A program made the translations under genes and the position numbers. From a virus (lineage: Duplodnaviria > Caudoviricetes): 64,000 nucleotides of DNA. Positions 1-19,500 of this stretch are shown here, in pieces (the first letter of the stretch is position 1; every line of letters begins with the position of its first letter). The stretch is taken from IMG/VR virus record IMGVR_UViG_3300005512_000003; one strand, 5' to 3'. The notes under the pieces were generated by a model. That model had not been told where the DNA came from and searched no databases. It worked only from the letters and a program-made list of their open reading frames with translations.

Positions 1-2
1 AT

Positions 3-239
3 GTCGGACCAGACACAACCTATGCAGAGCAGCGTAAGCAACGATTGCAGGATTGTGTTGATGACTATCTGCAAGACGATGAAGTTTCACCTTTGACTTT
101 TTACAATGAACTGAAGGATTGTGTGAGTGATGTGAGTGAGTATCACAAAAAGCAAATGGAAAGAGCAAGTGGATTGATGAAACTGATTAGTCCGATTCAG
201 TTTCAACAGGAGATACATATTGAAGAAAATCAATGTTAA
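3..239 (+). CDS. hypothetical phage protein (5'-truncated by window edge)
   Basis: Frame of ORF 45..239 stays open back to position 3 (VGPDTTYAEQRKQRLQDCVDD...); abuts next ATG at 240. Confidence 0.6.
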   Translation, partial: VGPDTTYAEQRKQRLQDCVDDYLQDDEVSPLTFYNELKDCVSDVSEYHKKQMERASGLMKLISPIQFQQEIHIEENQC

Positions 240-464
240 ATGGATGAACAGACTAAGTTGATTCTGGCACTATATCAAGTGGAAGGAATCACTAAACTCA
301 CACAAAACAACGAGTATAAGCAATACATTTACAATCACCTCAATCCCATTTACTATGAACTTCAGCGACAACTCTCTAATCTCCAACATGGACAAGAAAC
401 TGGCAGAAATGGACACGGACGAACTGATGATGTTTCTGGAGGAAGCGGAGAAGAAAGCATCTGA
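240..464 (+). CDS. hypothetical protein
   Basis: 74-aa ORF, tightly packed with neighbours. Confidence 0.6.
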   Translation: MDEQTKLILALYQVEGITKLTQNNEYKQYIYNHLNPIYYELQRQLSNLQHGQETGRNGHGRTDDVSGGSGEESI

Positions 465-513
465 ACTTGAGATCACAGTTGATTATTATATTGCAGAGTT
501 CTGCGGAATCTGA
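388..513 (+). CDS. small acidic hypothetical protein (not in ORF track)
   Basis: Hand translation MDKKLAEMDTDELMMFLEEAEKKASELEITVDYYIAEFCGI*. Confidence 0.55.
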   Translation: MDKKLAEMDTDELMMFLEEAEKKASELEITVDYYIAEFCGI

Positions 514-542
514 TAAAATAGTAAGGTAATCTACAGAGACAC

Positions 543-692
543 ATGAAACGCATTGTTGTTGATTTTTCGGAAGAAGAGTTTGAACTGACGATCGACGCGC
601 TTGAAGCGATTGCTCAAAGTGACGATTATGCTTCAGACATTTGTAATGACATCATTGACAAACTGTACGATGGCGCAAAAGAACTCTCCTGA
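543..692 (+). CDS. small acidic hypothetical protein (not in ORF track)
   Basis: Hand translation MKRIVVDFSEEEFELTIDALEAIAQSDDYASDICNDIIDKLYDGAKELS*. Confidence 0.55.
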   Translation: MKRIVVDFSEEEFELTIDALEAIAQSDDYASDICNDIIDKLYDGAKELS

Positions 693-987
693 GGTTTATC
701 ATGAACTCCCCCAAAGTTTTCCACACACTGCGCCAGAAGGGTACAGATACGAGGCAGTTTGCTTTAAACGCAATGTTATTGCAGTGTGGACTGTATATGA
801 TCGTGGGTTTGTCTACAGTGATTATGCTCCAGTTCGTTGTATCTGGGGATTCTTCAACACAAAGACAGGAACCTATTCAGCGCCTATTAACTCCACCAAG
901 TGTGGAGATCCAGTAGACATTAAGGATACAACTCCTTATTCAGCAATGCAACTCAATCTCAATCCATTAGAGAGAGCATTTCTATGA
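670..987 (+). CDS. hypothetical cyanophage-type protein
   Basis: Part of ORF 601..987; ATG at 670 avoids a long overlap with 543..692. Confidence 0.65.
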   Translation: MAQKNSPEVYHELPQSFPHTAPEGYRYEAVCFKRNVIAVWTVYDRGFVYSDYAPVRCIWGFFNTKTGTYSAPINSTKCGDPVDIKDTTPYSAMQLNLNPLERAFL

Positions 988-1244
988 CTGCCACATTCTA
1001 CACACCAAAGGTTAATGATTATGTAAAATGGGACAAGGTTGAAGGTTGGATCTATTGGATTGATGAGCAATCAACATATCTTACGATTGAGATTGCAGTC
1101 AAACCCAAAGATGATGAAAACATTCATCATAGTCCACTTCACCGCAAGGTTCATTGTTTGGTCGTTTGTTATTCACATGACTGGCCAAAACTTGTTTATG
1201 TCAAATCGCGAAAATCAGTTCATGACGATGAAGTTCAAAGTTGA
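984..1244 (+). CDS. hypothetical protein
   Basis: 86-aa ORF, ATGA overlap with upstream stop. Confidence 0.65.
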   Translation: MTATFYTPKVNDYVKWDKVEGWIYWIDEQSTYLTIEIAVKPKDDENIHHSPLHRKVHCLVVCYSHDWPKLVYVKSRKSVHDDEVQS

Positions 1245-1377
1245 GTATCTGTTTCCTAAGAAGAAGGGATATTCCAAGCAATCTGCAGTCTTTTATGATG
1301 TCAGAGATGCAATGATGTGGGAGCGTCATGTAAAAGAGAAAGGTTGTATTGACACTGAAGTATTGCCAGTATTCTAA
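1228..1377 (+). CDS. hypothetical protein
   Basis: C-terminal part of ORF 1039..1377 (MKFKVEYLFPKKKG...); likely real start at 1228. Confidence 0.55.
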   Translation: MKFKVEYLFPKKKGYSKQSAVFYDVRDAMMWERHVKEKGCIDTEVLPVF

Positions 1378-1613
1378 TGGAAAGTAACTATGACAAGTTG
1401 AAGAGTTATCTGAATGCCAAGTATGAGTATTTGGCTGCAATGGGAAAGCACAATCTTTCTGAAAGAGAAGGAGCAGAGTGTGAGTATCAATGGCGAATGA
1501 TGATTGACATTATGGAATATGTTGATAAACTGGATGAGATGGATGCATTGATCGAAAGTCTACCTACAGGAAACATCACACTGATTACAAATGCCAAGAG
1601 TCAAAACCAGTGA
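1377..1613 (+). CDS. hypothetical protein
   Basis: 78-aa ORF, TAATG coupling. Confidence 0.6.
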   Translation: MESNYDKLKSYLNAKYEYLAAMGKHNLSEREGAECEYQWRMMIDIMEYVDKLDEMDALIESLPTGNITLITNAKSQNQ

Positions 1614-1875
1614 TAAGTTATCTTCAAATCTGAAGGAACTTACAACCACAAAACCAAAGACCAACCCAAGCGCCAAGAGAAAGAAAAAGGAAGAGATCAA
1701 ATGCACTCGATCGCGAGACAAAGAGTTATTCCCTCATAATGCATTTCCATTTCGCTTAGATCATAAGAATGAAAAGCGAGTTTGTTGGTTTGAGTGTTAT
1801 GAACATGCAGAGAAATACATCACTCGATACTCATTAACATCAAAAGATTACACATTAAAGAAACCCTGGAGTTAA
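1591..1875 (+). CDS. basic hypothetical protein
   Basis: 94-aa ORF, Lys-rich N-terminus. Confidence 0.6.
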   Translation: MPRVKTSDKLSSNLKELTTTKPKTNPSAKRKKKEEIKCTRSRDKELFPHNAFPFRLDHKNEKRVCWFECYEHAEKYITRYSLTSKDYTLKKPWS

Positions 1876-1881
1876 GAAATC

Positions 1882-2046
1882 ATGACCTGGACACTGAAGA
1901 ACAATGCTGCTGTTTCCCGCCGATTGGAGAAGGTTGGAGATGTCAATCTTGACACTCATGAAGGACGAAGTGCAGTTGGATATTGCTATATGGAATATGT
2001 TTCCGAACCACAGATGATTACATATGAAGAGGAGGAGGAAGAATGA
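1882..2046 (+). CDS. small hypothetical protein with poly-Glu tail (not in ORF track)
   Basis: MTWTLKNNAAVSRRLEKVGDVNLDTHEGRSAVGYCYMEYVSEPQMITYEEEEEE*. Confidence 0.5.
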   Translation: MTWTLKNNAAVSRRLEKVGDVNLDTHEGRSAVGYCYMEYVSEPQMITYEEEEEE

Positions 2047-2189
2047 TTCTGAAGCAATGTAAGTCAAACTGGTATTATGTCTTCTGGGGCATTTGTACTG
2101 TTACGGTATTAGCAGGGCAAGTGTATATTGGTACTGGTTATCATCGTTTTGCTAATTCTATCAACGCTTATATCACACAGACTCAATGA
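2043..2189 (+). CDS. small membrane protein (not in ORF track)
   Basis: MILKQCKSNWYYVFWGICTVTVLAGQVYIGTG...; one hydrophobic segment; ATGA overlaps at both ends. Confidence 0.6.
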   Translation: MILKQCKSNWYYVFWGICTVTVLAGQVYIGTGYHRFANSINAYITQTQ

Positions 2190-2758
2190 AACCATTAACA
2201 CTGTCACAACTGAATCGAGTCAGTGCATTAAATCCAATGCAATCTGATCCTTCATTTCTACCATTGGTGAATGATTATGTCCAACGATGGAGTTCACTCT
2301 CTGAAGAAGGATTGGATCATGTTGCACTGATTCGGTGTATTGAATGTACCAATGGTTGTGTACAGTATGCCTTTCGCGACAATAGCGACAAAGCATTGTC
2401 TGTTGAACAAACGCGAGAAGCAATGAAGACTAGCATGTCTTTTATTAAGACAAAGAGTCTCACATTGCCTAATCATCAAACAATCAATGCACTCCCTGAA
2501 ATACACTCCCTCATGGATGAAACAAGGACTCTTTATGTTGAAGGATTCAAGAAAGGTAATCCAGAGATGACAAAAGAGTTCTTTGCTTCTTCTGTCGCCC
2601 AGTTGTATGTGTGTGGAAAAGAAAGGATTGTCAAACAAATGAAGTTTGTGAAGGAACACTTTACTGATACATTTACAGAGTTTTGGTTAACAATGGGATT
2701 ATCATATATGATGCAGTTTCTATTACCATTAGAAGACTATACACATACTAAACCTTAA
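2186..2758 (+). CDS. hypothetical protein
   Basis: 190-aa ORF; its stop overlaps the convergent HNH stop in TTAA 2755-2758. Confidence 0.75.
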   Translation: MKPLTLSQLNRVSALNPMQSDPSFLPLVNDYVQRWSSLSEEGLDHVALIRCIECTNGCVQYAFRDNSDKALSVEQTREAMKTSMSFIKTKSLTLPNHQTINALPEIHSLMDETRTLYVEGFKKGNPEMTKEFFASSVAQLYVCGKERIVKQMKFVKEHFTDTFTEFWLTMGLSYMMQFLLPLEDYTHTKP

Positions 2759-3204
2759 ACATTATTGTATCTGACATTATTCACTAAGATTTTAATATAT
2801 TTCTGCATTCTATCCCATTCTGTTGTAGGCATGATTGTTATACCATTATCAAGGTGAACTATCTCATCAGTATAGGAATGAGGTATCTCTACTGTTTTAT
2901 TCTTATGACGATATATCCATTCTAAGTTAGATGCATTGTTATTGAGTTTATTACCATCTTTGTGTATAATGATCATACCATCTTCATATCCTTCACAGAA
3001 AGCAAATCCAACTAATCTGTGTACATAGAAAGGACGAGCATATTTCTTATCTTTATCATATACACTTACCATATAGAGAGATGCACCGTTTCTTTCTTTT
3101 AGGTATTGTTTAAGTTTCTTACCTGTCTTCTTATTGTATACCTCACCCTCTTCTGATACAATGGTATTGTCAAGAGAAGGATGTAGTTCAGAGAGATCGT
3201 ACAT
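2755..3204 (-). CDS. HNH (HNH_3/NUMOD4-type) homing endonuclease
   Basis: VSEEGEVYN...VHRLVGFAF...IIHKDGNKLNNNASNLEW motif. Confidence 0.85.
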   Translation of the reverse strand: MYDLSELHPSLDNTIVSEEGEVYNKKTGKKLKQYLKERNGASLYMVSVYDKDKKYARPFYVHRLVGFAFCEGYEDGMIIIHKDGNKLNNNASNLEWIYRHKNKTVEIPHSYTDEIVHLDNGITIMPTTEWDRMQKYIKILVNNVRYNNV

Positions 3205-3457
3205 ACTGATAATATAGAGGGAAGGTGAAGGTTGTGCTCTATATTTTATGTATAGTGCATAGGTTAATCATAGGTTCTAGGTTTAATAAATGGTTAAAAA
3301 AATAGTATAGAGTAATGTATATGGATTGTGTTCTATAGAATCTAGACGAGAATGTGTGTATCATCATATAATCATCATATAAGTCTCGTCTAGAATCATC
3401 ATATATGTCTCATAAAGTCTCGTCTAAATGTGTGATCTTATAGTCAGCTTAGCCCGC

Positions 3458-3486
3458 AGTCTATCAGATCTCGACGAGAATGTCAA
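3458..3486 (-). promoter_or_regulatory. sigma70-type promoter facing the HNH gene
   Basis: Minus strand TTGACA-N17-TAGACT with TG extension; a palindrome lies inside the spacer. Confidence 0.75.
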
Positions 3487-3544
3487 GCACACGCGCCCAG
3501 ATTTCGCAGTGGCACACAGTCTCATAAGTCTCGACGAGATACAC

Positions 3545-3573
3545 TTGACATCCGCAGTCACATACAGTATCAT
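3545..3573 (+). promoter_or_regulatory. sigma70-type promoter
   Basis: TTGACA-N17-TATCAT, flanked by palindromes at 3529 and 3581. Confidence 0.8.
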
Positions 3574-3842
3574 ATAAACATCTCGACGAGATGTGCAGAG
3601 GTACGCAGTACACCACAGCGTACATATCTCGACGAGATACACATAAATCCACACATATCACATACAGTCATATACTGCGTACACATAATCTCGACGAGAT
3701 ATGTACATAATTACACATCACATCTAGTACACATATAGAGCACATATACTGCGTGTGTTCTAGTATAGAGCACACAGTGTACCATTGCACTATATTACGT
3801 GCATATATAATTACTGTGCGATGCATTAATGCGTAGCACATG

Positions 3843-3871
3843 TTGACGAGCACGGACATATCTGTTAGTAT
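3843..3871 (+). promoter_or_regulatory. sigma70-type promoter for ORF 3896
   Basis: TTGACG-N17-TAGTAT. Confidence 0.55.
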
Positions 3872-3895
3872 ACTAATGTATCGCAGGTCGCTCCA

Positions 3896-4078
3896 ATGAT
3901 TTCTTACGCTCAAAAACAAAAGTATCGAATCACCCTGGAAGTTGAGGTTCTAGATGACCCTGACTTCGCATTTGATCCTTTCCAGATTAACTGGTCTGAT
4001 GTTTTGTGTTTAGAACCTGCAGAGGATTGCACTGCATACGTAGAAGATCTATCACGAGATCTTCAGGAAGTATGGTAG
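3896..4078 (+). CDS. small acidic hypothetical protein
   Basis: 60-aa ORF downstream of promoter, followed by terminator. Confidence 0.65.
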   Translation: MISYAQKQKYRITLEVEVLDDPDFAFDPFQINWSDVLCLEPAEDCTAYVEDLSRDLQEVW

Positions 4079-4104
4079 GAATAAGACAGTTTTTATAGTG
4101 TCAC

Positions 4105-4131
4105 AAGACCCCTTGCGAGGGGTCTTTTTTT
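4105..4131 (+). terminator. rho-independent terminator
   Basis: AAGACCCCT-TGCG-AGGGGTCTT followed by T-run. Confidence 0.75.
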
Positions 4132-4161
4132 GTGCAATAGTACTATCACGTTCAAAGATTC

Positions 4162-4362
4162 GTGATGTCTGACCTTCTGGAAATGTTGTCTGCTCGTGAA
4201 CAGTTGATGGAGGACATTGATGCTATTATTGAAGGTTTTTACTTTGATAATCCAGTTCAGAACTGCTGCGGCGCTGACCGTCTCCAACTAACTGCCACTG
4301 ATCGTGATGAACTCACTCGCATCTTATGTGATGCTGTCTGCCGTAACTTTCCTGCTCAATGA
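4162..4362 (+). CDS. small acidic hypothetical protein
   Basis: 66-aa ORF. Confidence 0.65.
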   Translation: MMSDLLEMLSAREQLMEDIDAIIEGFYFDNPVQNCCGADRLQLTATDRDELTRILCDAVCRNFPAQ

Positions 4363-4370
4363 TAACAATG

Positions 4371-4428
4371 TGTGCCAATAGTTTTAGTGGCACAATAAAT
4401 GAGCACAGTGCTCAAAATCGTGTATTGT
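4371..4428 (+). promoter_or_regulatory. early promoter cassette: TGTGCCA-N10-TGGCACA inverted repeat plus -10 box
   Basis: Perfect 7-bp inverted repeat 4371-4377/4388-4394; TATTGT 28 nt downstream; CAAAATC conserved with the other copies. Confidence 0.7.
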
Positions 4429-4454
4429 ATTCTCAAGTTCAAAAACAAAGCAAA

Positions 4455-4628
4455 ATGATTCTCTCTGGCGCTGATGTTCGGATGGCATTAGTTTCCCGTC
4501 GTGGTGAACTGATTCGTTGTTCATCTATCACCAAAGATGATACTTTTGATCAACAGATTGCTGCTCTCGATGTTGCTATTGAAAAACTTTGGGATGCAAA
4601 GCAAATCGAACTCAACATCGTTAACTGA
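4455..4628 (+). CDS. hypothetical protein
   Basis: C-terminal part of ORF 4359..4628; first in-frame ATG after the promoter cassette. Confidence 0.6.
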   Translation: MILSGADVRMALVSRRGELIRCSSITKDDTFDQQIAALDVAIEKLWDAKQIELNIVN

Positions 4629-4634
4629 ACATCA

Positions 4635-4796
4635 ATGAAAAACTTTCGTGTTCGTGTTGAAACTTACGACGGATGTGTGACCATTTGGCATGAGAAATCA
4701 AAGGCAAAAACGGCTGATAAATTGATTCTCAATCGTGTCTACAATCAACTCTGTGGACTGAACATTAAAGAAGTTTCTGTTACTCCATCTGTTTGA
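4635..4796 (+). CDS. hypothetical protein (not in ORF track)
   Basis: MKNFRVRVETYDGCVTIWHEKSKAKTADKLILNRVYNQLCGLNIKEVSVTPSV*. Confidence 0.6.
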   Translation: MKNFRVRVETYDGCVTIWHEKSKAKTADKLILNRVYNQLCGLNIKEVSVTPSV

Positions 4797-4798
4797 TC

Positions 4799-4987
4799 AT
4801 GAACAAATCCGAACTGACTGCAGCAATCTATCAAGGTCTGGAGAATCTCATCGATAGCAATCAAATGCTCCATGATTACTGGGTTTCAGAGTTGTTTACT
4901 GATGAGGGAGATGTTATTTGTGAGGCATGGAATGGTGATACTCTGGCACTGATAGAAAAGGACGTTATGTATCAACAACTCATGTGA
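4799..4987 (+). CDS. small acidic hypothetical protein
   Basis: ORF 4793..4987, ATG at 4799. Confidence 0.6.
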   Translation: MNKSELTAAIYQGLENLIDSNQMLHDYWVSELFTDEGDVICEAWNGDTLALIEKDVMYQQLM

Positions 4988-5053
4988 CGGTCGGGGAACT
5001 GTCCACCATTCTCCCCATTGCCCCCAAAATCCTGTAATTTAAAAGAGTCAAAC
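4983..5053 (+). promoter_or_regulatory. early promoter cassette (degenerate inverted repeat plus TAATTT -10)
   Basis: TGTGACG-N10-TGTCCAC, TAATTT 28 nt downstream; 5022-5053 identical to 6889-6920. Confidence 0.7.
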
Positions 5054-5065
5054 GAATTCGACCGA

Positions 5066-5407
5066 ATGCGTCTCATCGAACGCCAAATGAACGCCGCCAT
5101 TCTTAACAAGAAAGATTGGCAGAAAGATAACACTATGGTGACACATTCTCACGATGGTGTGAATGCTCCCGTGTCTCATGTGTTTCTTTTCGGTAACAAG
5201 ATTGCCGAGGTTGGTGATAACTTCATTCGTCTTTTTGATGGCGGTTGGCAAACTACCACCACAAAATCCCGTCTGAATGCAATTTTGCAAGCGCACGGTG
5301 AGCAGGGTGATTGTGTCTTTCAGAAGAAGTTTGAGTGGTTCGTGACACTTAACACGAAACAAGGTCTCACCACTGTTCCTTTCTTCTCTTCAATGCGTCT
5401 GGGTTGA
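5066..5407 (+). CDS. hypothetical phage protein
   Basis: ORF 5018..5407; ATG at 5066 follows the promoter (MRLIERQMN...FDGGWQTTTTKSRLNA). Confidence 0.75.
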   Translation: MRLIERQMNAAILNKKDWQKDNTMVTHSHDGVNAPVSHVFLFGNKIAEVGDNFIRLFDGGWQTTTTKSRLNAILQAHGEQGDCVFQKKFEWFVTLNTKQGLTTVPFFSSMRLG

Positions 5408-5416
5408 TTAACACTT

Positions 5417-5445
5417 AAGGGGGACATTCGTGCCCCCCTTTCTTT
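5417..5445 (+). terminator. probable terminator/attenuator hairpin
   Basis: AAGGGGGAC-ATTC-GTGCCCCCCTT followed by TCTTT. Confidence 0.55.
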
Positions 5446-5465
5446 GTACCTTTCTCCTCTTCAAA

Positions 5466-5744
5466 ATGAACTACACTCTCAAACAACTTCAAAAACTTGT
5501 CAACAACATGGTTAAGATTCAAGGTGAAAATGCACCTTGTGCGGCATGGATTTACACTGCCGAGGATTGTATGATTCGTGATGAAAATGACGAACCGACT
5601 TATCCTTGTGACAAACATCCTGAACTCGCTGAAAGAATCTTCAATGATGTTGGCAACATTGATTACATCTATCAAGTGATTCAGGAGTGCGTAGATGAAG
5701 TTACGGAAGAACAGTTTATGTCACTTCAGCAAGAATTAGTCTGA
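5466..5744 (+). CDS. acidic hypothetical protein
   Basis: ORF 5430..5744, ATG at 5466. Confidence 0.7.
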   Translation: MNYTLKQLQKLVNNMVKIQGENAPCAAWIYTAEDCMIRDENDEPTYPCDKHPELAERIFNDVGNIDYIYQVIQECVDEVTEEQFMSLQQELV

Positions 5745-5750
5745 GTTATT

Positions 5751-5981
5751 ATGTCTTTCGTGTCCAACTTTTCTTCTTCAAGTGTTATGAACCAAGACCA
5801 ACTTGATCAGGTAAAAGAAAACTATGCCAACCTAATCGTGGATGGTATGGATATGAAAACTCTTTGCACATTTGCTATTGATACTATCATGCACAACATG
5901 GAATCGTGGGATGAGCAAGATTTAAAGGAAGAAGTTTTGGACCTTTATGATCAAGAAATCTGGGACGATTTGATCGCTTAA
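5751..5981 (+). CDS. very acidic hypothetical protein
   Basis: 76-aa ORF ending WDEQDLKEEVLDLYDQEIWDDLIA. Confidence 0.65.
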   Translation: MSFVSNFSSSSVMNQDQLDQVKENYANLIVDGMDMKTLCTFAIDTIMHNMESWDEQDLKEEVLDLYDQEIWDDLIA

Positions 5982-6002
5982 GTGATACCGCGAAGCGGCC
6001 GC

Positions 6003-6060
6003 CCGACCAGTTGGATAAGTGGCACACAAAATGGGCACTGCCCCCAAAATCTGGTAATTT
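6003..6060 (+). promoter_or_regulatory. early promoter cassette
   Basis: CCAGT-TGGATA-AGTGGCACA...CCCCAAAATC-TGG-TAATTT; -10 lies 28 nt after TGGCACA. Confidence 0.7.
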
Positions 6061-6066
6061 AGATTC

Positions 6067-6270
6067 ATGGAAAACAACGCAACCGACATGACCATCACTC
6101 CCGCATTCACTGATGCAATCGAATCGATGCAATCGTTCTTTTATGAGATGAACCCTGACATCGACATGTGCTACGATTGGGTGTGTGAAATGGCACAAGT
6201 TTCCACCTTCGTTCACAACAACGATGCGTGGGATATGTTCTACGATGCATGGGAAACTGTCTCTGCCTGA
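6067..6270 (+). CDS. very acidic hypothetical protein (near-leaderless mRNA)
   Basis: 67 aa with no Lys or Arg; ATG 6 nt after the -10 box. Confidence 0.65.
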   Translation: MENNATDMTITPAFTDAIESMQSFFYEMNPDIDMCYDWVCEMAQVSTFVHNNDAWDMFYDAWETVSA

Positions 6271-6306
6271 TTAACAACAACTCTTTCGCCCTTAACTAAC
6301 AACAAC

Positions 6307-6471
6307 ATGCAAGAGACTAAGTTTATTCTTCACGGACAATTCCACCGCGCTAATGGTTGGATTATGAATGACAGTTTGGGTTACATCAAAGCAACAAAAG
6401 AGGAAGCGATTGAAACATGTAACCGCCTCAATCCTAACTTTGTGATTCAATCTATCACTATCGAAGAATGA
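6307..6471 (+). CDS. hypothetical protein (not in ORF track)
   Basis: MQETKFILHGQFHRANGWIMNDSLGYIKATKEEAIETCNRLNPNFVIQSITIEE*. Confidence 0.6.
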   Translation: MQETKFILHGQFHRANGWIMNDSLGYIKATKEEAIETCNRLNPNFVIQSITIEE

Positions 6472-6677
6472 TGTACACTGACCCCTGCACTTTCGCTCTT
6501 CAAACTGACAACAACATTATGCAAAACGTTTACACTGATTACATCGAAAGCAAAGGTTACACCGTGAAAGAGTGTTACCGTCCCGCTAAAAAAGAGGTTC
6601 CTGCTTCACTTCGTGATCGCTATTCTTCCTATGAAGAGTATCAGGAAGCAATGGCAGATTTCCTTAACGGAATGTGA
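6468..6677 (+). CDS. hypothetical protein
   Basis: 69-aa ORF. Confidence 0.6.
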   Translation: MMYTDPCTFALQTDNNIMQNVYTDYIESKGYTVKECYRPAKKEVPASLRDRYSSYEEYQEAMADFLNGM

Positions 6678-6713
6678 TTTTTTCCCTCTAATCGTCCCTT
6701 CGTTATTCACAAC

Positions 6714-6845
6714 ATGTTTGATGAACTTTGGTCTGAGATTAATGACATGCCAGGTGAAATCTTCGATATTCCTGAGATGAAAGATCTGCAGGAAGATGAT
6801 AACAAATCCCTGGAAGATTTCCTGAAAAGTAACAACGACTTCTAA
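6714..6845 (+). CDS. very acidic peptide (not in ORF track)
   Basis: MFDELWSEINDMPGEIFDIPEMKDLQEDDNKSLEDFLKSNNDF*. Confidence 0.6.
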   Translation: MFDELWSEINDMPGEIFDIPEMKDLQEDDNKSLEDFLKSNNDF

Positions 6846-6848
6846 GGG

Positions 6849-6920
6849 GTGGACAATCGGAGAGGTGGCACACACTTTCCCACAAGCGCCCCAAAATCCT
6901 GTAATTTAAAAGAGTCAAAC
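6849..6920 (+). promoter_or_regulatory. early promoter cassette driving the ardA-like gene
   Basis: GTGGACA-N10-TGGCACA, TAATTT 29 nt downstream; 32-bp identity with 5022-5053. Confidence 0.7.
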
Positions 6921-6934
6921 AAATCACTTCACAC

Positions 6935-7369
6935 ATGCCCATCACTTTGACCGCTAACTACAAAGAAACCCTCTCTGCAGTTACTGTCGAAAAGATCGAA
7001 GAATTCCTGGAAGATTGTTATGATCTTCCTGCAATCCTTGAGTTCATTGATGAGAACTCCGAAGAGGATTTCGTTAACTACTACGAAGAATATGTTCGTT
7101 GTGGTGAACAGATTGGTTATGAGGCAGTTGATGCTTTGATCGAAGAATCGGGCATTGATGCTATCAATGAGTGTGACGAACGTTATCAGGGTCACTATCA
7201 ATCAACCGCTGATTTTGCAGAGGAGTTCTTTACAGAAATGGGTGAGCATATTCCCGATGCAATTGTTGTAGATTGGGAGGCAACTTGGGATCGTAATCTT
7301 TACTATGATTTCACCGCATGTAACGATGGTTCCGTATACTGCCCCATCCACATCTTTCGTGATCACTGA
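6935..7369 (+). CDS. ardA: ArdA-like antirestriction protein (DNA mimic)
   Basis: 36 D/E vs 6 K/R in 144 aa; YQGHYQSTADFAEEF...IPD...VDWEATWDRNL matches the ArdA C-terminal pattern YxGxYxSxxDFAEE...IP...IDYE. Confidence 0.75.
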   Translation: MPITLTANYKETLSAVTVEKIEEFLEDCYDLPAILEFIDENSEEDFVNYYEEYVRCGEQIGYEAVDALIEESGIDAINECDERYQGHYQSTADFAEEFFTEMGEHIPDAIVVDWEATWDRNLYYDFTACNDGSVYCPIHIFRDH

Positions 7370-7375
7370 TAACAT

Positions 7376-7399
7376 GGGGGACTCATCTCCCCCCTTTTT
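7376..7399 (+). terminator. hairpin plus T-run between the ardA-like and nuclease genes
   Basis: GGGGGA-CTCATC-TCCCCC-CTTTTT. Confidence 0.55.
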
Positions 7400-7424
7400 A
7401 TTGACCCTTCCTCATCACAATCTC

Positions 7425-7973
7425 ATGGCGCATTACAACAAGTTCAAAGGCGGAATTCAGAAGGGCACTGTTGCTTTCGATGAGCAATCGAAGGCAATGG
7501 ATGATAACGCTAAGTCTGCAATGAACCTTGCATTCGTGTTACTTTCTGCCAAATATCCGATGCTCTCCGTTGAGAAAAAACTGCAGCAATCTGACATCCC
7601 TGGGGGTATTGGTTCGTGTGCTCCTGACGGTGGAGTTTGGTATTACGACGGCGAACTGATTGCATGTTTTGAGAGTAAGAAACAAGGTGATAAAGGCAAC
7701 GCTATCGAACGTTGGTTTAAAAACAATTTCATTGTTCGTGCTATCAATCCCGAAGCAACTTATGTCACGTTTGCATCAGGTGCTGGCGTGATTGCAGGTA
7801 ATCCGATTCATCGTATCCTGCACATTGCACACTGTGGAGAGTATGGAACGATGAACGAAGTTGCCGCTGGCGTTAACAATCTCCACTGTAAGATTGAAGG
7901 GTTTACAGTAGAAGAAATGGTTGCTATTATGGTGGAGACCGTTGATACTATTATGGCAGAGATTTACCCCTGA
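7425..7973 (+). CDS. EcoRI-family (PD-(D/E)xK) type II restriction endonuclease-like protein
   Basis: PDGG...ESKKQG...GNAIERWFKN...YVTFASG aligns with EcoRI PDGG...EAKHQG...GNAIERSHKN...YVLFLEG; ATG at 7425 within ORF 7305..7973. Confidence 0.8.
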   Translation: MAHYNKFKGGIQKGTVAFDEQSKAMDDNAKSAMNLAFVLLSAKYPMLSVEKKLQQSDIPGGIGSCAPDGGVWYYDGELIACFESKKQGDKGNAIERWFKNNFIVRAINPEATYVTFASGAGVIAGNPIHRILHIAHCGEYGTMNEVAAGVNNLHCKIEGFTVEEMVAIMVETVDTIMAEIYP

Positions 7974-7988
7974 GAGTAACACCGAAGG

Positions 7989-8095
7989 CACGAATATTCG
8001 TTAACCACGGATATTCGTGTTTGGACAGTATTAGGGGGTTTATGTGTTACGCCGTGGGCGGCGTTGCGGTTATAAAAATCGCTAACTACCCTAAC
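7989..8095 (+). other. structured intergenic element (multiple hairpins)
   Basis: 13-bp inverted repeat 7989-8001/8007-8019; ACGCCG-TGGG-CGGCGT hairpin enclosed by a TTAGGGGGTT/AACTACCCTAA stem. Confidence 0.55.
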
Positions 8096-8151
8096 CTACA
8101 CTGTATGTCTTTTTCGAGCTCTATTTCACGATCATAAAAAAATTTTCTGGT

Positions 8152-8754
8152 ATGAAAATTCTACCCACAAGGTTTCCACGTTATTCAGTGTCTGATACTG
8201 GACAAGTCTTTAGGGACGGCAAGCCCTTGAAGAGTCATAACAGGGGAGTGTCTACGAGTAATGGCACAAGGTATCAGGCAGTGAATATATCAATCTATGA
8301 TGATAGCGGAAAGTTTGCGAGGCAAATAAAGTATTATGTGCATCGCTTGGTTGCCGAGACATTCATAGAAAACCCAGAGAATCTATCAGAGATTGATCAC
8401 ATCGATGAGAATAAAGAGAACAATAATGTAAGTAATCTCCGATGGTATTCAAGAGCGGCAAACGCTGCTCGGAATGGTTTCCCTGAAGGAACGATTATAG
8501 AAAGGAAGAAGAGTGAGAAATCAAGGAATCCCTCAAAGTACATCAAGAAAGATGGGGAGTGGGTTTTGATTCCGAGTGAGAGATCGCCGTGGAACAAAGG
8601 ATTAAAAGGATCATCATGGAATACTGGAATGAAATCTGGAGAACCCGATGGGACGATCCGAAAGAGGGCGAATGGTCATTATTACATCAAAGAGGAGGGT
8701 AAATGGAATCACGTTAAGAAGAAAGATTATGGAAAATATGGACTCATTCCATAG
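8152..8754 (+). CDS. HNH homing endonuclease with NUMOD-type DNA-binding repeats
   Basis: YSVSDTGQV...VHRLVAETFI...IDHIDENKENNNVSNLRW; PWNKG/SWNTG motifs. Confidence 0.9.
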   Translation: MKILPTRFPRYSVSDTGQVFRDGKPLKSHNRGVSTSNGTRYQAVNISIYDDSGKFARQIKYYVHRLVAETFIENPENLSEIDHIDENKENNNVSNLRWYSRAANAARNGFPEGTIIERKKSEKSRNPSKYIKKDGEWVLIPSERSPWNKGLKGSSWNTGMKSGEPDGTIRKRANGHYYIKEEGKWNHVKKKDYGKYGLIP

Positions 8755-8821
8755 AAAAAAATCGCCCAGAAAATTTTGACCCCAAAAGAGTTTATACATA
8801 AAGTAACCGAGAGAGGTCACC

Positions 8822-9010
8822 GTGGAGCACACAGTGTATCATGTCTACGGAAGAAAGAGGAACCAGTATGGTTCCTCAGAAGTCATTGCTCATAGTTTGT
8901 CAGATGATGAGTTACGTGAAAGGATTCTGAAAAAAGAAGTTCAGTTAGATATTCACGAGATTCTCCCAGTTACGACAGGGATTGCGCGGGGAACCGAACA
9001 ATCTTATTAA
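8822..9010 (+). CDS. hypothetical protein
   Basis: 62-aa ORF, GTG start with GAGG RBS. Confidence 0.6.
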   Translation: MEHTVYHVYGRKRNQYGSSEVIAHSLSDDELRERILKKEVQLDIHEILPVTTGIARGTEQSY

Positions 9011-9011
9011 C

Positions 9012-9041
9012 TTGACAGTGACTACATAAGTACGTTAAACT
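9012..9041 (+). promoter_or_regulatory. sigma70-type promoter
   Basis: TTGACA-N18-TAAACT upstream of 9064. Confidence 0.55.
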
Positions 9042-9063
9042 TGAACTGAAGTCAATCACAGTT

Positions 9064-9858
9064 ATGGCAAAAGGATTTAAAGTAAAGACTGCGACTGCAC
9101 CGCAGCAACAGGGTCCTGAATGGGACTACACAGCAATCAAAGAGCGTATGAGGGGCAAGAGCATTGTGTTCTGTCTTCCTGGTCGAGGATGCTCATATAT
9201 TTTTCTGAAGAACTTTGTACAGCTGTGCTTTGATATGGTACAGAACGGTATGAGTATTCAGATCAGTCAAGACTATTCATCGATGGTGAACTTTGCACGT
9301 TGTAAGTGTTTGGGTGCGAATGTTCTTCGTGGTCCCAACCAGATTCCCTGGGATGGTAAGTTGAAGTATGATTATCAGTTGTGGATTGATAATGATATTG
9401 TTTTCAACACTGAGAAGTTCTGGCAACTGTGTGATCTCGCAGTACCTGGACCTGACAAAGACGGCAATCCTCAAGAAGAGCGAGAGATCGCAGCAGGTTG
9501 GTATGCCACCGAGGACGGTCATACGACCAGCGTTGCTCACTGGTTGGATGAGGAAGACTTCCGTAAGAACGGTGGTGTGATGAATCACGAGACCTGTGAG
9601 ACCATGCAGAAGCGTCGTAAGCCGTTCACTGTAGACTACACTGGTTTTGGATGGGTCCTGATCAAGAACGGTGTCTTTGAGAATCCTGAGATGACTTATC
9701 CTTGGTTCGCTCCTCAGATGCAAACCTTTGAAGATGGTAAGGTTCAGGATATGTGTGGAGAGGACGTATCGTTCTGTCTGGATGCAAAGGCAGCAGGTAT
9801 TGTGACCTGGTGTGATCCTCGTATTCGCGTGGGTCACGAAAAGACTCGTGTGATCTGA
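9064..9858 (+). CDS. putative GT-A fold glycosyltransferase
   Basis: YDYQLWIDNDIVF (DxD), TGFGWVLIK, GEDVSFC, DPRIRVGH motifs. Confidence 0.7.
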   Translation: MAKGFKVKTATAPQQQGPEWDYTAIKERMRGKSIVFCLPGRGCSYIFLKNFVQLCFDMVQNGMSIQISQDYSSMVNFARCKCLGANVLRGPNQIPWDGKLKYDYQLWIDNDIVFNTEKFWQLCDLAVPGPDKDGNPQEEREIAAGWYATEDGHTTSVAHWLDEEDFRKNGGVMNHETCETMQKRRKPFTVDYTGFGWVLIKNGVFENPEMTYPWFAPQMQTFEDGKVQDMCGEDVSFCLDAKAAGIVTWCDPRIRVGHEKTRVI

Positions 9859-11023: not shown

Positions 11024-11209
11024 ATGGGACATCCAAAGCATCTAGACGGTTCAGTTGACAAAGGAAATGACTTTATTGAGTCTGGAATGACTCTTATCAC
11101 TGAAGTTGAGAGTGAAAAATACTTGAAAATGGCAGAAAACCGCAAAAAAGCGAAAAAACAACAAACTGACGAAGGATTCTTTGATACTACAGAGACTTTC
11201 ATCGACTAA
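11024..11209 (+). CDS. hypothetical protein
   Basis: 61-aa ORF with AGGAGG RBS. Confidence 0.7.
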   Translation: MGHPKHLDGSVDKGNDFIESGMTLITEVESEKYLKMAENRKKAKKQQTDEGFFDTTETFID

Positions 11210-11226
11210 ACCTTAAAAAACCGCGT

Positions 11227-11233
11227 CTAAATA
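11227..11233 (+). promoter_or_regulatory. T4-type (gp55) late promoter; representative of a recurring motif
   Basis: (C/A)TAAATA precedes late genes at 11227, 26571, 33475, 39928, 40682, 42713, 43520, 48273, 51245, 53146, 54165, 56829. Confidence 0.75.
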
Positions 11234-11259
11234 AGACAGAATCATAGTATTTTGTCTCA

Positions 11260-11661
11260 ATGCCTCTAGAGGGAGTCAGTCGCGGTTTTAAAGACATTAG
11301 TTTTTCGTTTGGAAAGCATCCAATCAGCAATGATTTGGTTACATTATCAAATGAAAGTGCAATATCTCGTGCTGTTCGCAATTTAGTGCTGACGAAGATC
11401 GCTGAGAGACCCTTTAATAGAGATCTTGGTACAAAAGTAAAGGATGCACTGTTTGAAAACTTTGATGCGATCACCGCTAACATCATTGAGGATGAAATTC
11501 GTTTCATATTGAATCGTTATGAGGAACGAATCACTCTCAGAGAGGTTAGTGTTCAACATGACAATGATTCAAGTATCGTTGAGTGTAAAATACAATACGA
11601 AATCGTAGGTAGACCAGAAACACTTCAGGAACTCACATTTGCATTAGAGTCGGTTCGATAA
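11260..11661 (+). CDS. g25: baseplate wedge subunit gp25
   Basis: FKDISFSF..HP..AI..AVRNLVLT..ERPF..YEERI; synteny. Confidence 0.9.
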   Translation: MPLEGVSRGFKDISFSFGKHPISNDLVTLSNESAISRAVRNLVLTKIAERPFNRDLGTKVKDALFENFDAITANIIEDEIRFILNRYEERITLREVSVQHDNDSSIVECKIQYEIVGRPETLQELTFALESVR

Positions 11662-13569: not shown

Positions 13570-13575
13570 AATACG

Positions 13576-16500
13576 ATGGTAAAAAGAGTTAAAATCAGTT
13601 CCGTAATCGAGAGCCAACTCCCTGCATTTGTAAGGGAAGATTTTCCTCGTGTAGCAGAGTTTTTACAAGAATATTATAGATCTCTTGACAGTCAAAGTGG
13701 AACATTAGACCTTCTTCACAATATTGACAAATATGTCAAGGTTGAGGAGATGACAAACCTCAATCATGAGACGACATTGACATCTAATGTCTCAAGATTT
13801 GATAATACCATTGAAGTTGCTGATACAACTGATTTTCCTGAGACTTATGGTCTGATTCAGATTAACTCAGAAGTTATTACATACACTGGAAAAACATCTA
13901 CGTCGTTCACTGGGTGTGTTCGTGGTTTTTCTGGTATTACATCGTATAGAAGTCAAAATAAACCAGACTCTTTGGTTTTTTCTGACACTGCTATTGGTAA
14001 ACATTCTAGCGGTGCAACAGTTAAGAACCTTAGCACTTTATTCTTCAAAGAGTTTTTAAGAAAAACAAAAAATCAAGTAACTCCAGGATTTGAAGACCGA
14101 GAGTTATATTCTGGTATTAATCAAAACCTTTTCATAAAGCAGTCAAGGGATTTTTACGAATCAAAAGGTACTGATCAATCCTTTGAGATTCTTTTCCGCG
14201 CTTTGTATGGAAAGGATGTAGAAATACTGAAACCTAGGGATAATCTCTTTCAACCATCTGATGCTCAATACAGCGTTACTCAAGATTTAGTTGTAGAGGC
14301 AGTTACTGGGGACCCACTAAATCTTCAGAATAAAACTCTGTTTCAAGACGCTGGTTCTGGGTTTGAAGAAGCAAGAGGATCTGTAACCAAGTCTGAACAA
14401 TTCGTAAAAGATGGAAAGACTTACTACAAGTTAAGTCTTGACTACGACTTTGACAAAGATATTAACGTATTTGGATCTCTTTTTGGTGAATTTCAAGTTC
14501 ATCCAAAAACCAGAGTCATTACAGCAGTATCTGCTGGTGCTACTATTCTTGATGTTGATTCAACGGTAGGTTTTGGAACTAATGGAACTTTAGTTATTGA
14601 TAGTTCTGCTGGAACTGCTACTGAAGTCACATACACTTCAAAAACATTAAATCAGTTCTTTGGTTGTGCAAATGTCCCTGATGTTTTATCAGAAACTGAA
14701 GCAAGAACTAATGTTACTGCATATGGATATCAAGGTCCTGGTGCGACTAATCCTATTACTGTCAGAGTTGGTGCAGTTTTATCTGATATTGAGTTTGATC
14801 CCACTACAAATGGTCTTAAAGATAAAGATTCGCTAAAAATTGATTCTCTTGGAAAAAGAGCACTTGATAGCAAGTCAAACAACTGGATATTTAATATTCC
14901 TGCAGTTTATGATATAAAATCAGTAACTCTTGTTGATAGTTCAGACTTTACTTACAGATTCCAAACATTTGATGCTTTAACATTATATGATGGTGATTCT
15001 ATTGATGTATTGACTCAAACGGGTGTTAGAATCACGAGTCAAATAACTTCTATTGAAAATGAGAATACTTTTCAGGTAAGAGTTGGGCAGCAACTTATTG
15101 AAACCCAAAAACACACTATTTTTAAAAACCTGACAAAGGTAAACGCCACTAACTTTCCTCAAACAAACGACAATAACGCAAACGTTCAAAACGCATATCT
15201 TGATGGTAATGATGACCTTTATATTGCATCTCCATCACTTCCTGCATATTTCAGACAGGAGTTAAAGGTAAAGGATCGTTCCATTAGTTTTAGTGGAACG
15301 TATACCGATGCAGAAGTTATTGATATTGGGTTCCATGGACTATACACTGGGGACTCTGTTGTTTATATTCCAGGATCTGGAACAAATAAACTCAATATTG
15401 ATGCTGGAACTTATTTTGTAAAGAGAGTTTCTTCAAACGAAGTATCTCTGTATAGAAGTAGAGCAAATATCTTTAACAATGTCTTTATTGCCATTACTGG
15501 AACGGTAACTGATAACAAGTTTGAGTTGTTTAGACTTTCTGGTCAAACTTTAGAATCTCAAAAGTTAATCAGAAAGTTTCCACCACCAGAAGATAGTCAG
15601 TTTATCAACAAGACTACTGCTGGTCAAATTGGTATGTTGGTAAATGGTGTTGAGATTTTAAACTATAAGTCTCCAGACTCCATTTTCTATGGACCTATCG
15701 AAAATATTATTGTAACTTCTCCTGGTTCTGGTTATGATGTTGTAAATCCTCCAATATTGGGTATTACTGATCCTGTTGGTACTGCAGCGACAGGTTTGAT
15801 CGCGGTAGAGGGATCCTTTGAAGAAATACGAGTAGTTGATGGTGGATTTGACTATATTGGTACACCCGTAATCACAGTAACTGGTGGTGGGGGAAGAGGT
15901 GCTACGGCAGAAGCAGATATGCTCACTGTTAAGCACGTAAATAACTTCAATGCATTTGGAGATTCTGGTCGAGTTGACCTTAGCAATAATACGATTGGTT
16001 TCTCATCATTCCATAAGTTCAGAAATGGCGAGGCAGTAATATATTCTACTGGCGGTGCATCCAATGTTGGTGGAATCTCAACAGATTCTGAATATTTTGT
16101 ATCCACACTTGAGAGTGATACTTATATAAAACTTCACTATACTGAGTCAGATGCAATCGCTGGCATTAATACGGTTAATTTGACTTCATATGGTGAAGGA
16201 ACTCATTCTTTCACCGCAGTTAAGAGAAAGAGAGTTATCAACAGCATTAAAGTAACCAATGCTGGTTCTGGATATAAAAATAGAGCGATTCAAGTAAGTT
16301 CTAGCAATATTAACACATATTCTGATACCATCTTCTCAAAAAATCACGGATATTCTGATGGAGATCTTCTTGTTTATTCTTCGACTGGTATTTCCGCTGA
16401 TGGATTAGATGAGGGATCAAAATATTATGTGACTAGAGTTGATGGTGATAGTTTTAGATTGTCTCCTGTTGGAGTTGGTACTACAGTAGCAAAAGATTTT

Positions 16501-19500
16501 TATTTTACAACCAAACAACATATTAATATTACGGGTCAGGGAACTGGTACTCACTCATTTAACTATGAACCCATTGAAGTTAAAGTAGATGGTGTTATTG
16601 GTATTACAACATTCTCTGGTCAAGATTTTGATGCAAAACTGCAACCTATTGTAAGGGGTGAAATAACTGGGGTATCTTTGTCAAATAATGGTATTGGTTA
16701 TGGTAGCAGTGAAATCATTGGAGACAATAGACAACCATTATTTACTTTTAACAGAGGATCTGGTGCAATATTAGAACCAGTAGTTATTAATGGAACTATT
16801 ATTGAAGTTGTTATCAAATCTGGAGGATCTGGATATAACTCACCACCTTCTCTCACTGTTTTGGGTGATGGAGAAGGTGCCGAGTTAGTTCCAGTTATTA
16901 CTAATGGTGCAATCACCGACGTAGAGATTGCAAACAGTGGTTACAACTATACAAATAGTAAGACCAGTATTAGCATAACACCAGCTGGATCTGGTGCAGC
17001 ACTTCAGGCATCCATTAAGAACTGGGTAATCAACTTATTTGAAAGATCCCTGCAAGTTCCAAACATTACTGATGATGATGGATTTATCGCAGAAGGATTG
17101 AACCCAGAGTATGGTTTGCAATATTGCCACATTTATGCGCCAAGAAAGTTCAGACAAAATGTCTATAGAGAGGTTACTAGACTTGATAAGCAAGTTTTCG
17201 TTCCTGACCTTATCATTGATAGCACAACTTCTTCTGAAATAGCATCTAAAAATCACTCACCAATCATTGGATGGGCGTATGATGGTAATCCAATCTACGG
17301 ACCATATGGATATGATAAAGCAACTGGTGGAGTTGTCAGAGCAATGGTCTCTGGTTATGAAAGAGTAACACCTGATAATCGTCCCCCTGTAGGAAAGTTT
17401 CCAAAGGGATTCTTGATTGATGACTATACCTTCACTGGTAGTGGTGATCTTGACAAGTACAATGGCAGATTCTGCGTAACTCCAGAATATCCAAATGGTA
17501 CATATGCATATTTTGCCACCATTTCTAATGGTGCAGTGGAATCTGTTGGACCATTTAGAGGATACAAACTTCCTCAGTTCCCATATTTCATTGGTGATGA
17601 GTTTAGATCATCTCCGATAGATTTTAACTTTAAAAAGAATTCAAATCAAGATGACTTTGATGTCATTTCCAACAAACTTGTAAGAAATACAACTCCATAT
17701 AACACAAAGTCATCTACCCAAAGGTATCCATATTATCTTGATCCAACAACCATTCAAGAGCACAATAGTGTTATTGATGATGTCAAGGCAGGAAAGGTTG
17801 AGTCTGTTAAAGTTAAAAAAGAAGGTCTTGATTATAAAGTAGATGATATAGTTAGATTTGATAACTCTGGAACTAGTGGAAGACAAGCAGCTGCTAAAGT
17901 TTCAAGAATTAAAGGTGTAACTGTAACTGGAGTTGCAGTTTCCACAAAACAAATCACTGATATTGAGTTTAGTCAATCTGGAAGAACTGGAGTTCTTGTC
18001 GGTTATGCTACTCAACCACATGATTTTAAAAATAATGACGAAGTAACGATCAGTGGTCTTTCAACAACCAACACAGGTCTTCAAAGGTTTTTCTCCATTG
18101 AAGTTCCAAGAAATAGTCTTGTATTGAGGTCTGGCATCGGAACCACTGGTGCAACGGGCATGGTGACCTTTGTAAGCGTCTCTGGTGACCTTTCTGCTAT
18201 CGCTAGTGATGACGTTTATGTGCTTGGTGATGAGAAAGTTCGGGTCCTAAACGTTGACTCCAAGAGTTCTCGTTTGAGAGTTGAAAGAAAATATGGAGGC
18301 ACAACAGGTGCTGCACATACAGCAACAACATTTGTCACCGAAGATCCAAGAAGACTTTTTGTTAATGTTGGATATTCCGAAAAACTTGATCTGTTCCCAA
18401 ATGTCAAGCTGTATTTTGATCCAAAAGAAACGTTTGCACAACAATCTGTAGGAGTTGCATCAACTAACATTGTTTCAGTTTCTTTTGCAAATCCAGGTTC
18501 TGGTGCAACATCTGTCTCTTTAACTGCATCACAACTTTACATTCCAAATCACGGATTGAGAACTAACAGTAAGTTACTCTATAATGCAAATGGTTCAGAT
18601 GGAATCAGAGTTTCACTTGCTCTCACATCTCAGTTTGGAACTGGATTTAACGTTGGATTCAATACATTTACTCTTGCAGATAACTCCATAGTATATGCTG
18701 CAAGATTCTCTAATGATATTATTGGCATCGCTACAAATCCTATTGTTACAAATAATGCTGGAGGATTTGTTGGAATCGGATCCACAACACAAGGATTATT
18801 ATTCTTTGAGGGTTATGGGTCAGGAGATAAGCATAGTTTAGTAACCGATTATTCCAATACACTTTCTGGACTGATTAATAGAAATGTTGTAACTGTTTCT
18901 ACAGCATCAACTCATAACTTGGTTGCAAATGAAACTGTAAAACTTGACGTTTTCCCAGGAATAACAACAACTATCAAGTTGTCTTATAATGAAGTAGCAA
19001 GAAGAGTCGTTGGAAACAGACTTAACTTTGTTAAAACTGCGGTTGATTTGCTTGAGAATACAATAACGATTGAAAATCATGGATTTGTAACAGGACAAAA
19101 AGTAATATATCAATCTGCACTTTCATCTGCAGATAGAATTATTGATTCAGATACTACTGTTGATGTACCTACCGTTTTCCCATCTCCTCTTGAGGTAGAA
19201 AAACCATTTACTCTTAGGGCAACATTAAATGGTGTTATTATTGTTGACGCTGATGCTATTCCTAGCAACAGCATCTTCTACGTTGTTGTTGAAGACTACA
19301 ATACGATTAAACTTGCATCTACTTATTACAATGCAGTAAAGAGCAATCCAGAAATTGTTGATATGATCTCCAATACTTTTGGTGATCTTGCTCCTATCAA
19401 TCCTCCTGTCGCACTTATTAGAAATCAAACTGTAGAGTTTGATCTTTCAGATTCTTCATTGTCTTACAGAAGAGGATCTATTGATTATCCTGCATTTGAG

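Follow-up and report, generated by a model that had tools for sequence, protein, structure and literature searches.

The tetranucleotide AATT is strongly avoided throughout a 64,000-nucleotide stretch of viral DNA (IMG/VR record IMGVR_UViG_3300005512_000003; the whole stretch is referred to below as the window), and among the phage loci compared this avoidance tracks the presence of a gene for a small nuclease of the EcoRI family, which the window also carries. The reading that we favour, with a probability of roughly three in four, is that the avoidance is self-imposed and caused by a phage-borne restriction-modification (R-M) system directed against AATT. Two features are central to this reading.

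1–64000, no strand assigned: AATT-depleted phage DNA, with an early region of small open reading frames (ORFs) and T4-like baseplate, tail and head genes.
7425–7973, plus strand: gene for a 182-amino-acid EcoRI-family PD-(D/E)XK nuclease ("mini-EcoRI"), the proposed AATT-directed enzyme, recognised by profile, fold and motifs.

Megablast of positions 40000–48000 of the window matched Synechococcus and Prochlorococcus myoviruses only, at 74–81% identity, and ORFs of the window match T4-type gp25, gp6, gp15, gp19, the prohead protease and the large terminase. Judged from these similarities, the window is part of a T4-like cyanomyovirus that lies outside the isolate collection. Over its full length AATT occurs 114 times against 381 expected under an order-2 Markov model (z −18.6) and ranks first among the 256 tetramers in under-representation; the zero-order expectation is 538 (8.4 per kb) and the first-order expectation 518. 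An earlier inspection of the letters by a model (the sequence-only reading) had confined the avoidance to positions 1–18060, which proved too narrow. That part contains 35 AATT, where a zero-order model expects 152 and an order-2 Markov model 114 (z −10.1), and in positions 18061–64000 there are 79 against 267 (z −15.6), the ratios being 0.31 and 0.30; the depletion is uniform over the whole window, and both parts are equally affected. The approximate hand counts of that reading turned out to be exact, with one AATT in 1–3400 (at 2154), seven in 14041–18060, and one AATT against 11 TTAA in 16021–17040 on recount, and the positions that it gave for GAATTC (7001, 7453, 10101) and CAATTG (7260) are correct.

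The Markov-corrected and codon-shuffled analysis that had been proposed with these counts was run over the window. In the synonymous-codon shuffle, which was done within genes and preserved the proteins and the codon usage of each gene, coding DNA contains 99 AATT against 443 ± 15.5 (z −22). The suspected bias against those GAA and AAA codons that would form AATT is borne out by codon shares that depend on context (p values from 1e-13 to 1e-42). AAA makes up 7% of Lys codons preceding a codon that begins with TT and 58% elsewhere; where AATT would arise, GAA has a share of 16% among Glu codons (66% elsewhere) and CAA of 12% among Gln codons (67% elsewhere). Likewise, AAT accounts for 12% of Asn codons preceding T against 65% elsewhere, ATT for 20% of Ile codons following a codon that ends in A against 63% elsewhere, and the TTR codons of Leu shift in the same way where AATT would form. 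By the Markov model, the codon shuffle and the context-dependent codon choice alike, AATT is rarer than composition and codon usage would predict. Each of the ten NAATTN contexts falls to 0.11–0.33 of the first-order expectation, with GAATTC and CAATTG no exception, which identifies the bare tetramer AATT as the word that is avoided. A target site longer than AATT was considered and rejected, since every NAATTN context is depleted alike. Tetramer counts in the window put TTAA and ATAT near expectation, and the trimers AAT and ATT are somewhat low. Turnover of the residual AATT sites relative to related phages gave a mixed picture from small numbers, the sites in the early region being as conserved as other 4-mers and those in the structural genes less so.

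The sequence-only reading had also suggested asking whether the depletion follows the EcoRI-like gene across related phages, and it does. The first 33 gene-bearing viral loci that were fetched all have an observed/expected ratio of AATT below 0.9, with the nuclease ORF and its motifs intact. For the 29 carrier loci of at least 8 kb the median ratio is 0.40, and AATT ranks first in 15 of them and within the first five in 26, whereas the median of the 96 other loci is 0.95 (Mann–Whitney p 1e-13; against GC-matched non-carriers p 7e-9). The low values (below 0.75) among these 96 belong either to carrier clades (loci L001, L113–L115 and L121) or to short fragments of unknown gene state (L049 and L181). 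Loci fetched with the terminase have ratios of 0.80–1.08, except the nearest relative L001 (0.28) and L049 (0.65); those fetched with the nuclease have ratios of 0.13–0.86.

The same pattern is seen on the tree of gp6. The clade of 17 rows that includes the window has ratios of 0.24–0.61, and the nuclease gene is present wherever the upstream DNA is visible; the sister clade of 68 rows has ratios of 0.67–1.09 (median about 0.96), and the gene is found in none of the 13 loci that show at least 8 kb upstream. Ordered by gp6 identity to the window, relatives at 86–90% have ratios of 0.24–0.40, and those at 72%, which carry a nuclease of 74% identity, have 0.54–0.61. Loci at 59–64% have ratios of 0.67–1.09, most of them near 1.0, with the gene in the syntenic position in 0 of 13, and farther carriers, at 47% and 35%, are depleted again. 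Distant members of the nuclease family (33–40% identity) occur on unrelated phage contigs, which encode RecA, DnaB, PolB or a different terminase and in which AATT is usually the lowest tetramer (L202–L205: 0.28–0.46, rank 1). On contig L190 (1–8197) there is no AATT at all against 34.6 expected; its nuclease lies at 3487–3999, and no methylase is found within the 8.2 kb. Other genes on this contig encode RecA, a Cas4-like nuclease and ThyX. Taken together, AATT avoidance tracks the presence of the nuclease gene.

Isolates provide a control in which the host is the same. When 50,697 phage records were searched by tblastn, the nuclease gene was detected in S-RIM2 strains, S-BM1 and S-CREM2 only. 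Synechococcus WH7803 is the host on which S-RIM2 was isolated, which carries the gene and has an AATT ratio of 0.28, as well as S-PM2 (0.98) and S-SCSM1 (0.96), from which the gene is absent; the carrier S-BM1 was also isolated on WH7803. These phages have a different set of avoided words in common. The window avoids CCGG (0 against 43 expected), GGCC, AGCT and GTAC as well as AATT; absence of CCGG and depletion of AGCT are common to the window, S-RIM2, S-PM2 and S-SCSM1, and depletion of GGCC is found in S-RIM2 and S-PM2. Non-carriers from which CCGG has been purged have AATT ratios of 0.81–0.98. There are thus two layers of avoidance, a common one that is probably host-driven and an AATT layer that is specific to nuclease carriers. 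Avoidance of CCGG and RGCY probably reflects host enzymes, because non-carriers share that layer. All RGCY words are depleted in the window (AGCT 44 observed against 131 expected, GGCC 6 against 26, GGCT 16 against 83, AGCC 14 against 41.5), and the counts for GGCT are 9 against 78 in S-PM2 (L216) and 4 against 82 in S-RIM2 (L112), those for AGCC 15 against 63 and 4 against 37, respectively. RGCY is the site of CviJI-type enzymes. Other words are low elsewhere: cyanophage contig L073 (1–13729) has TTAA at 0.18 of expectation, CCGG at 0 against 9 and a nearly normal AATT at 0.84, and in L199 and L200 TTAA is the lowest tetramer.

The nuclease encoded at 7425–7973 includes the sequence CAPDGGVWYYDGELIACFESKKQGDKGNAIERWFKNNF, and its motif run reads PDGG..ESKKQG-DK-GNAIERWFKN. 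HMMER searches retrieved 225 representatives of the family at the 50% clustering level, nearly all of 165–210 amino acids. In an alignment of 52 homologs P67, D68, E83, K85, Q87, G91, N92 and R96 are invariant, and A93 and E95 are conserved in at least 90%. The PD...(D/E)XK motif is present, and P67-D68, E83 and K85 align with the PDGG and EAKHQG segments of EcoRI (D91, E111 and K113). The elements with which EcoRI handles the inner AATT are also kept, namely the counterpart of Gln115 (Q87) and GNAIER (G-N141-A142-I-E144-R145 in EcoRI). Used as a single sequence, the nuclease gave nothing relevant among PDB sequences and no Pfam family at E ≤ 0.01; with the family profile, EcoRI is the sole match among PDB sequences (E 4e-9). 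The AlphaFold2 (AF2) model has a mean predicted local distance difference test score (pLDDT) of 89.5 and a predicted template modelling score (pTM) of 0.84, and Foldseek places EcoRI entries at ranks 1–5 (E 2e-6, probability 1.0, TMq 0.64), with MunI a weak match at rank 11. As modelled, the fold of the nuclease is the EcoRI fold. The Pfam EcoRI model PF02963 matches 2 of the 52 family members (best E 3.7e-4), and a few database homologs have a precomputed PF02963 match. The GenBank record of S-CREM2 annotates the homolog as 'restriction endonuclease EcoRI'.

MunI and MluCI, the latter a cutter of AATT, have been placed together with EcoRI as possibly mosaic relatives (PMC4081073). With the EcoRI/RsrI/MunI/MluCI group (Type IIP, alpha branch, PF02963; PDB 1ERI, 1CKQ, 2OXV) the nuclease has PD..ExK, Gln and GNAIER in the same order, and its fold is nearest to EcoRI. 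It differs from EcoRI in its length (182 against 277 amino acids), in the absence of the inner arm, in a predicted site that is bare AATT rather than GAATTC, and in belonging to a phage-borne family. EcoRI residues 117–137, which form the inner arm, have no counterpart, and the alignment does not extend past about residue 176; the 182-residue protein does not have the complete EcoRI architecture, which includes both arms, inner and outer, as well as the residues responsible for reading the outer G:C pairs. For EcoRI, bonds to the inner AT pairs are described from Arg145 and from the main chain of residues Asn141 and Ala142, the latter also acting as a wedge at the centre of the site, and the arms touch the backbone outside it (PMC4081073); that Gln115 is critical for the inner thymidine is cited in the reference list of the same paper. 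Considering these known roles, the retained Gln and GNAIER suggest that the parts kept in the nuclease are those that read AATT. From the conserved EcoRI motifs together with the avoided word, its site is predicted to be bare ^AATT. The ratio of nonsynonymous to synonymous substitution rates (dN/dS) of 0.05–0.20 indicates that the gene is under purifying selection. A scan for one peptide pattern, GNAIERW, across 185,579 prokaryotic species genomes found a single small contig of a metagenome-assembled genome; as far as this one-pattern scan goes, hardly any prokaryotic genome carries the family, which is phage-borne.

A candidate methylase partner of the nuclease is found in the relatives. In distant members of the nuclease family and in S-RIM2-type loci a D12-class N6-adenine methylase lies directly 3' of the nuclease, often overlapping it and sometimes with a gene inserted. 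In the window itself, tblastn with the methylases of S-RIM2, L191, L192, L199, L202 and L204 detected nothing, even at E 10, and none of the roughly 30 window ORFs scanned against Pfam was recognised as a methylase. A walk upstream from L195, which has a nuclease 98% identical to that of the window, reached L227, L229 and L230. L227 overlaps positions 6–2484 of the window at 88.6% nucleotide identity, and all three contigs are AATT-poor (0.27–0.33). They encode a D12 methylase of 285 amino acids, and its gene stops 3,963 bp short of the point that corresponds to base 6 of the window. This methylase is 64% identical to that of S-RIM2 and 56–58% identical to the nuclease-adjacent ones of L199, L202 and L204; to the Dam of S-PM2 it shows only 31% identity over 97 amino acids. 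The nuclease is thus probably not methylase-less, as close relatives have the partner at a distance of about 11 kb upstream. In the clade of the window the R and M genes are most likely split and separated by about 11.4 kb, which would place the methylase of the window's own genome just outside the window. Other searches did not reveal this copy: a query of IMG/VR with the methylase of L199 retrieved only loci with the S-RIM2-type methylase, the upstream copy surfacing only in the contig walk, and the ORF at the left end of the window retrieved only relatives of 50–62%, which are uninformative for the clade.

The partner methylase resembles the GATC methylases of class D12, namely E. coli and T4 Dam and DpnM (2G1P, 2DPM, 1Q0S), which it matches at E values from 6e-19 to 2e-5. 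Compared with E. coli Dam (EcoDam; 2G1P) it keeps DPPY, N120 and P134, and the position of L122 is I or V. It differs at two positions, K9 and R124, where Ile and Gln are found. Among the R-linked methylases compared, with the divergent L191 excepted, Gln at the R124 position is invariant, and the K9 position holds I or M (K in L202). In EcoDam, discrimination at the fourth pair of GATC, where R124 reads the guanine, is lost in R124A, and K9 and Y138 read the first pair (PMC4417163). GATC and AATT differ only at the two outer pairs, so that the replacements at K9 and R124 fit an AATT methylase with outer A:T pairs, and the specificity of the partner methylase may have shifted from GATC to AATT. 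Between nuclease and methylase lie a 351-amino-acid DUF6551-like protein in S-RIM2 (L112:25452–26507) and a pyrimidine-dimer glycosylase in S-CREM2 (L217:7641–8147). The R-M junction seems to be an insertion hotspot, and the pair may have become split in that way. On L210 (1878–3296) the homologs of nuclease and methylase lie in a single 1.4-kb open frame, which may be an R-M fusion.

These characteristics could be combined in the following way. The phage would carry an R-M module against the 4-base palindrome AATT, consisting of a stripped-down EcoRI relative and a Dam-class methylase, and any AATT that is left unmethylated, even briefly, during fast T4-type replication and recombination would be a potential self-cut. 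The likely reason for avoidance despite methylation is that sites are at risk whenever methylation lags behind replication. Selection would then remove AATT, mostly through context-dependent synonymous codons, to about one-fifth to one-third of expectation depending on the null model. The benefit would probably be the cutting of unmethylated DNA of the host or of a rival phage. In this scheme we infer cleavage and methylation at AATT as well as the direction of causality and the biological benefit. The residual density of 1.8 AATT per kb is about the compositional expectation for a host of ~60% GC; with a density that host-like, the number of sites alone cannot tell self from host, and a methyl mark would be needed. 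A more elaborate version, which we regard as tentative and rather doubtful, makes the module an early-expressed offensive weapon that shreds the unmethylated host chromosome and the AATT-rich DNA of co-infecting cyanophages, for nucleotide scavenging and exclusion; the phage would pay by erasing AATT, and some lineages, such as L190, would have arrived at zero sites and be protected by site elimination alone without a methylase. For L190 itself, such protection from its own enzyme may apply.

Several points weigh against the proposed R-M system as the cause. The depth of depletion varies widely among carriers, from 0.00 to 0.86; L111 is barely depleted (0.86, z −1.7), and in the 14.6 kb sampled from S-CREM2 the deficit is not significant (7 against 11). 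Most non-carriers are fragments, gene absence being shown only for complete isolate genomes and for the syntenic upstream region. The nuclease of the window falls below the threshold of PF02963, and the methylase was seen in relatives at 88.6% nucleotide identity and not in the window genome. With 114 AATT remaining in 64 kb, avoidance alone cannot protect the genome. The specificity proposed for cleavage and methylation rests on the EcoRI motifs and the avoided word, and an association cannot give the direction of causality.

The last point leaves room for the reverse order of events, in which the lineages had become AATT-poor beforehand for another reason, and the nuclease could be acquired and retained by such genomes only. 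The association by itself cannot order the events, and the weakly depleted carriers L111 (0.86) and L106 (0.82) could be recent arrivals of the gene in ordinary genomes or, equally, poor fits for the enzyme. However, no clearly gene-less AATT-poor phage is present among the 96 other loci, and an independent prior cause would have had to act on the same tetramer in at least five unrelated phage lineages, which makes this order unlikely. The methylase could also be the selective agent if N6-methyladenine at AATT carried a cost, such as interference with transcription or with protein binding. Restriction and methylation genes travel together, so that their effects are confounded, and L212 carries a methylase with no nuclease in its 4.9 kb and has an AATT ratio of 0.46; a contig of this length, however, cannot demonstrate absence of the nuclease. 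Dam-type methylation is not known to carry a cost of this kind, the Dam-bearing S-PM2 retains GATC (213 against 283), and L190 has lost every AATT with a nuclease and no methylase in view, making this a very improbable explanation.

The sequence-only reading had left it undecided whether an AATT-directed enzyme of the phage or of its host is responsible. Selection and the enzyme of the phage are supported; the host alternative is disfavoured. On the one hand, avoidance of host restriction sites is common in phages, and the avoidance of CCGG, GGCC, AGCT and GTAC here, as in non-carriers, indicates that host-driven avoidance operates, so that a cyanobacterial AATT enzyme (an isoschizomer of MluCI/TspEI) might purge phages while the phage nuclease is incidental. 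On the other hand, S-PM2 and S-SCSM1 keep their AATT on the very host of S-RIM2 and S-BM1, with CCGG and AGCT avoidance in common, CCGG-purged non-carriers keep theirs as well, the link between gene and depletion holds in unrelated phage contigs, and the one-pattern scan found the nuclease family almost absent from prokaryotic genomes; a host origin is accordingly quite improbable. A neutral compositional or structural bias, arising from codon usage, from avoidance of AT-tracts or curvature or from mutation, would be in line with the somewhat low AAT and ATT trimers. Yet the depletion survives the order-2 Markov model and the codon shuffle, codon choice flips only in the context that creates AATT, TTAA and ATAT stay near expectation, and relatives of similar composition are undepleted. 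By the codon shuffle, the codon context and the GC-matched non-carriers, a neutral bias is effectively refuted.

Palindrome avoidance at restriction sites has reportedly been described in both phage and bacterial genomes, and bacteria are said to avoid the sites of their own R-M systems. The avoidance described here is like these cases in that a short palindrome is depleted by means of synonymous codons and, as in bacteria, would be the site of the genome's own R-M system. It is unlike the usual avoidance in phages, since the selecting enzyme appears to be that of the virus and not of the host, and since AATT avoidance is not common to non-carriers. R-M systems encoded by viruses include R.CviAII/M.CviAII of chloroviruses and EcoP1I of phage P1, and those of the chloroviruses are believed to break down the DNA of the host. 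The system proposed here is similar in that a lytic virus has a site-specific nuclease and a matching methylase, but the enzyme families are different, and the two genes are about 11 kb apart in this clade. We know of no report that the viruses with chlorovirus or P1 systems purge the site from their own genomes. The literature searches turned up no paper that deals with AATT avoidance in cyanophages or with this nuclease in these phages, and the S-CREM2 paper does not discuss the annotated 'restriction endonuclease EcoRI'. Restriction-site avoidance as such is known; what would be new is that a virus imposes it on itself through an R-M system of its own, with a minimal relative of EcoRI as the nuclease.

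When phages avoid a restriction site, this is normally taken as a trace of host defence, and here the strongest signal appears to be self-inflicted. An avoided word could thus reveal the weaponry of the phage itself, and for an uncharacterised nuclease family, the shortest EcoRI relative met in these searches, it yields the testable prediction of ^AATT cleavage; for a lineage of Dam-class methylases the prediction is a change from GATC to AATT through two residue replacements. To our knowledge, T4-like cyanophages are without the modified cytosine of T4. An R-M system with a methylation mark would let these phages tell self from host DNA, which bears on the recycling of host nucleotides and on the exclusion of competitors by abundant ocean viruses. 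The small nuclease may also be of practical use as a compact 4-base cutter.

Three further genes of the window were considered as neighbours or context.

6935–7369, plus strand: ArdA-like anti-restriction gene, 55 bp upstream of the nuclease gene (phrog_36653, E 1e-56; weak Pfam ArdA match).
8101–8749 (ORF 8152–8754), plus strand: HNH homing-type endonuclease gene in a 649-bp insertion 3' of the nuclease gene (Pfam HNH_3, E 1.6e-9).
2755–3204, minus strand: second homing-type endonuclease gene, also HNH_3.

As specific partners of the nuclease, two genes were rejected. One is orf9064 (phrog_1574), a core gene located upstream of gp25 in nearly all relatives. The other is the ArdA-like gene, homologs of which occur in the non-carriers L148, L151, L171, L172 and S-PM2 with normal AATT; its adjacency to the nuclease is probably not functional, the homologs of S-PM2 and the non-carriers being in the same region. 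The insertion with the HNH gene is context and lies outside the mechanism. It is absent from the near relatives L195–L198 and L228, the last of which aligns to positions 6508–8100 and 8750–9320 of the window only.

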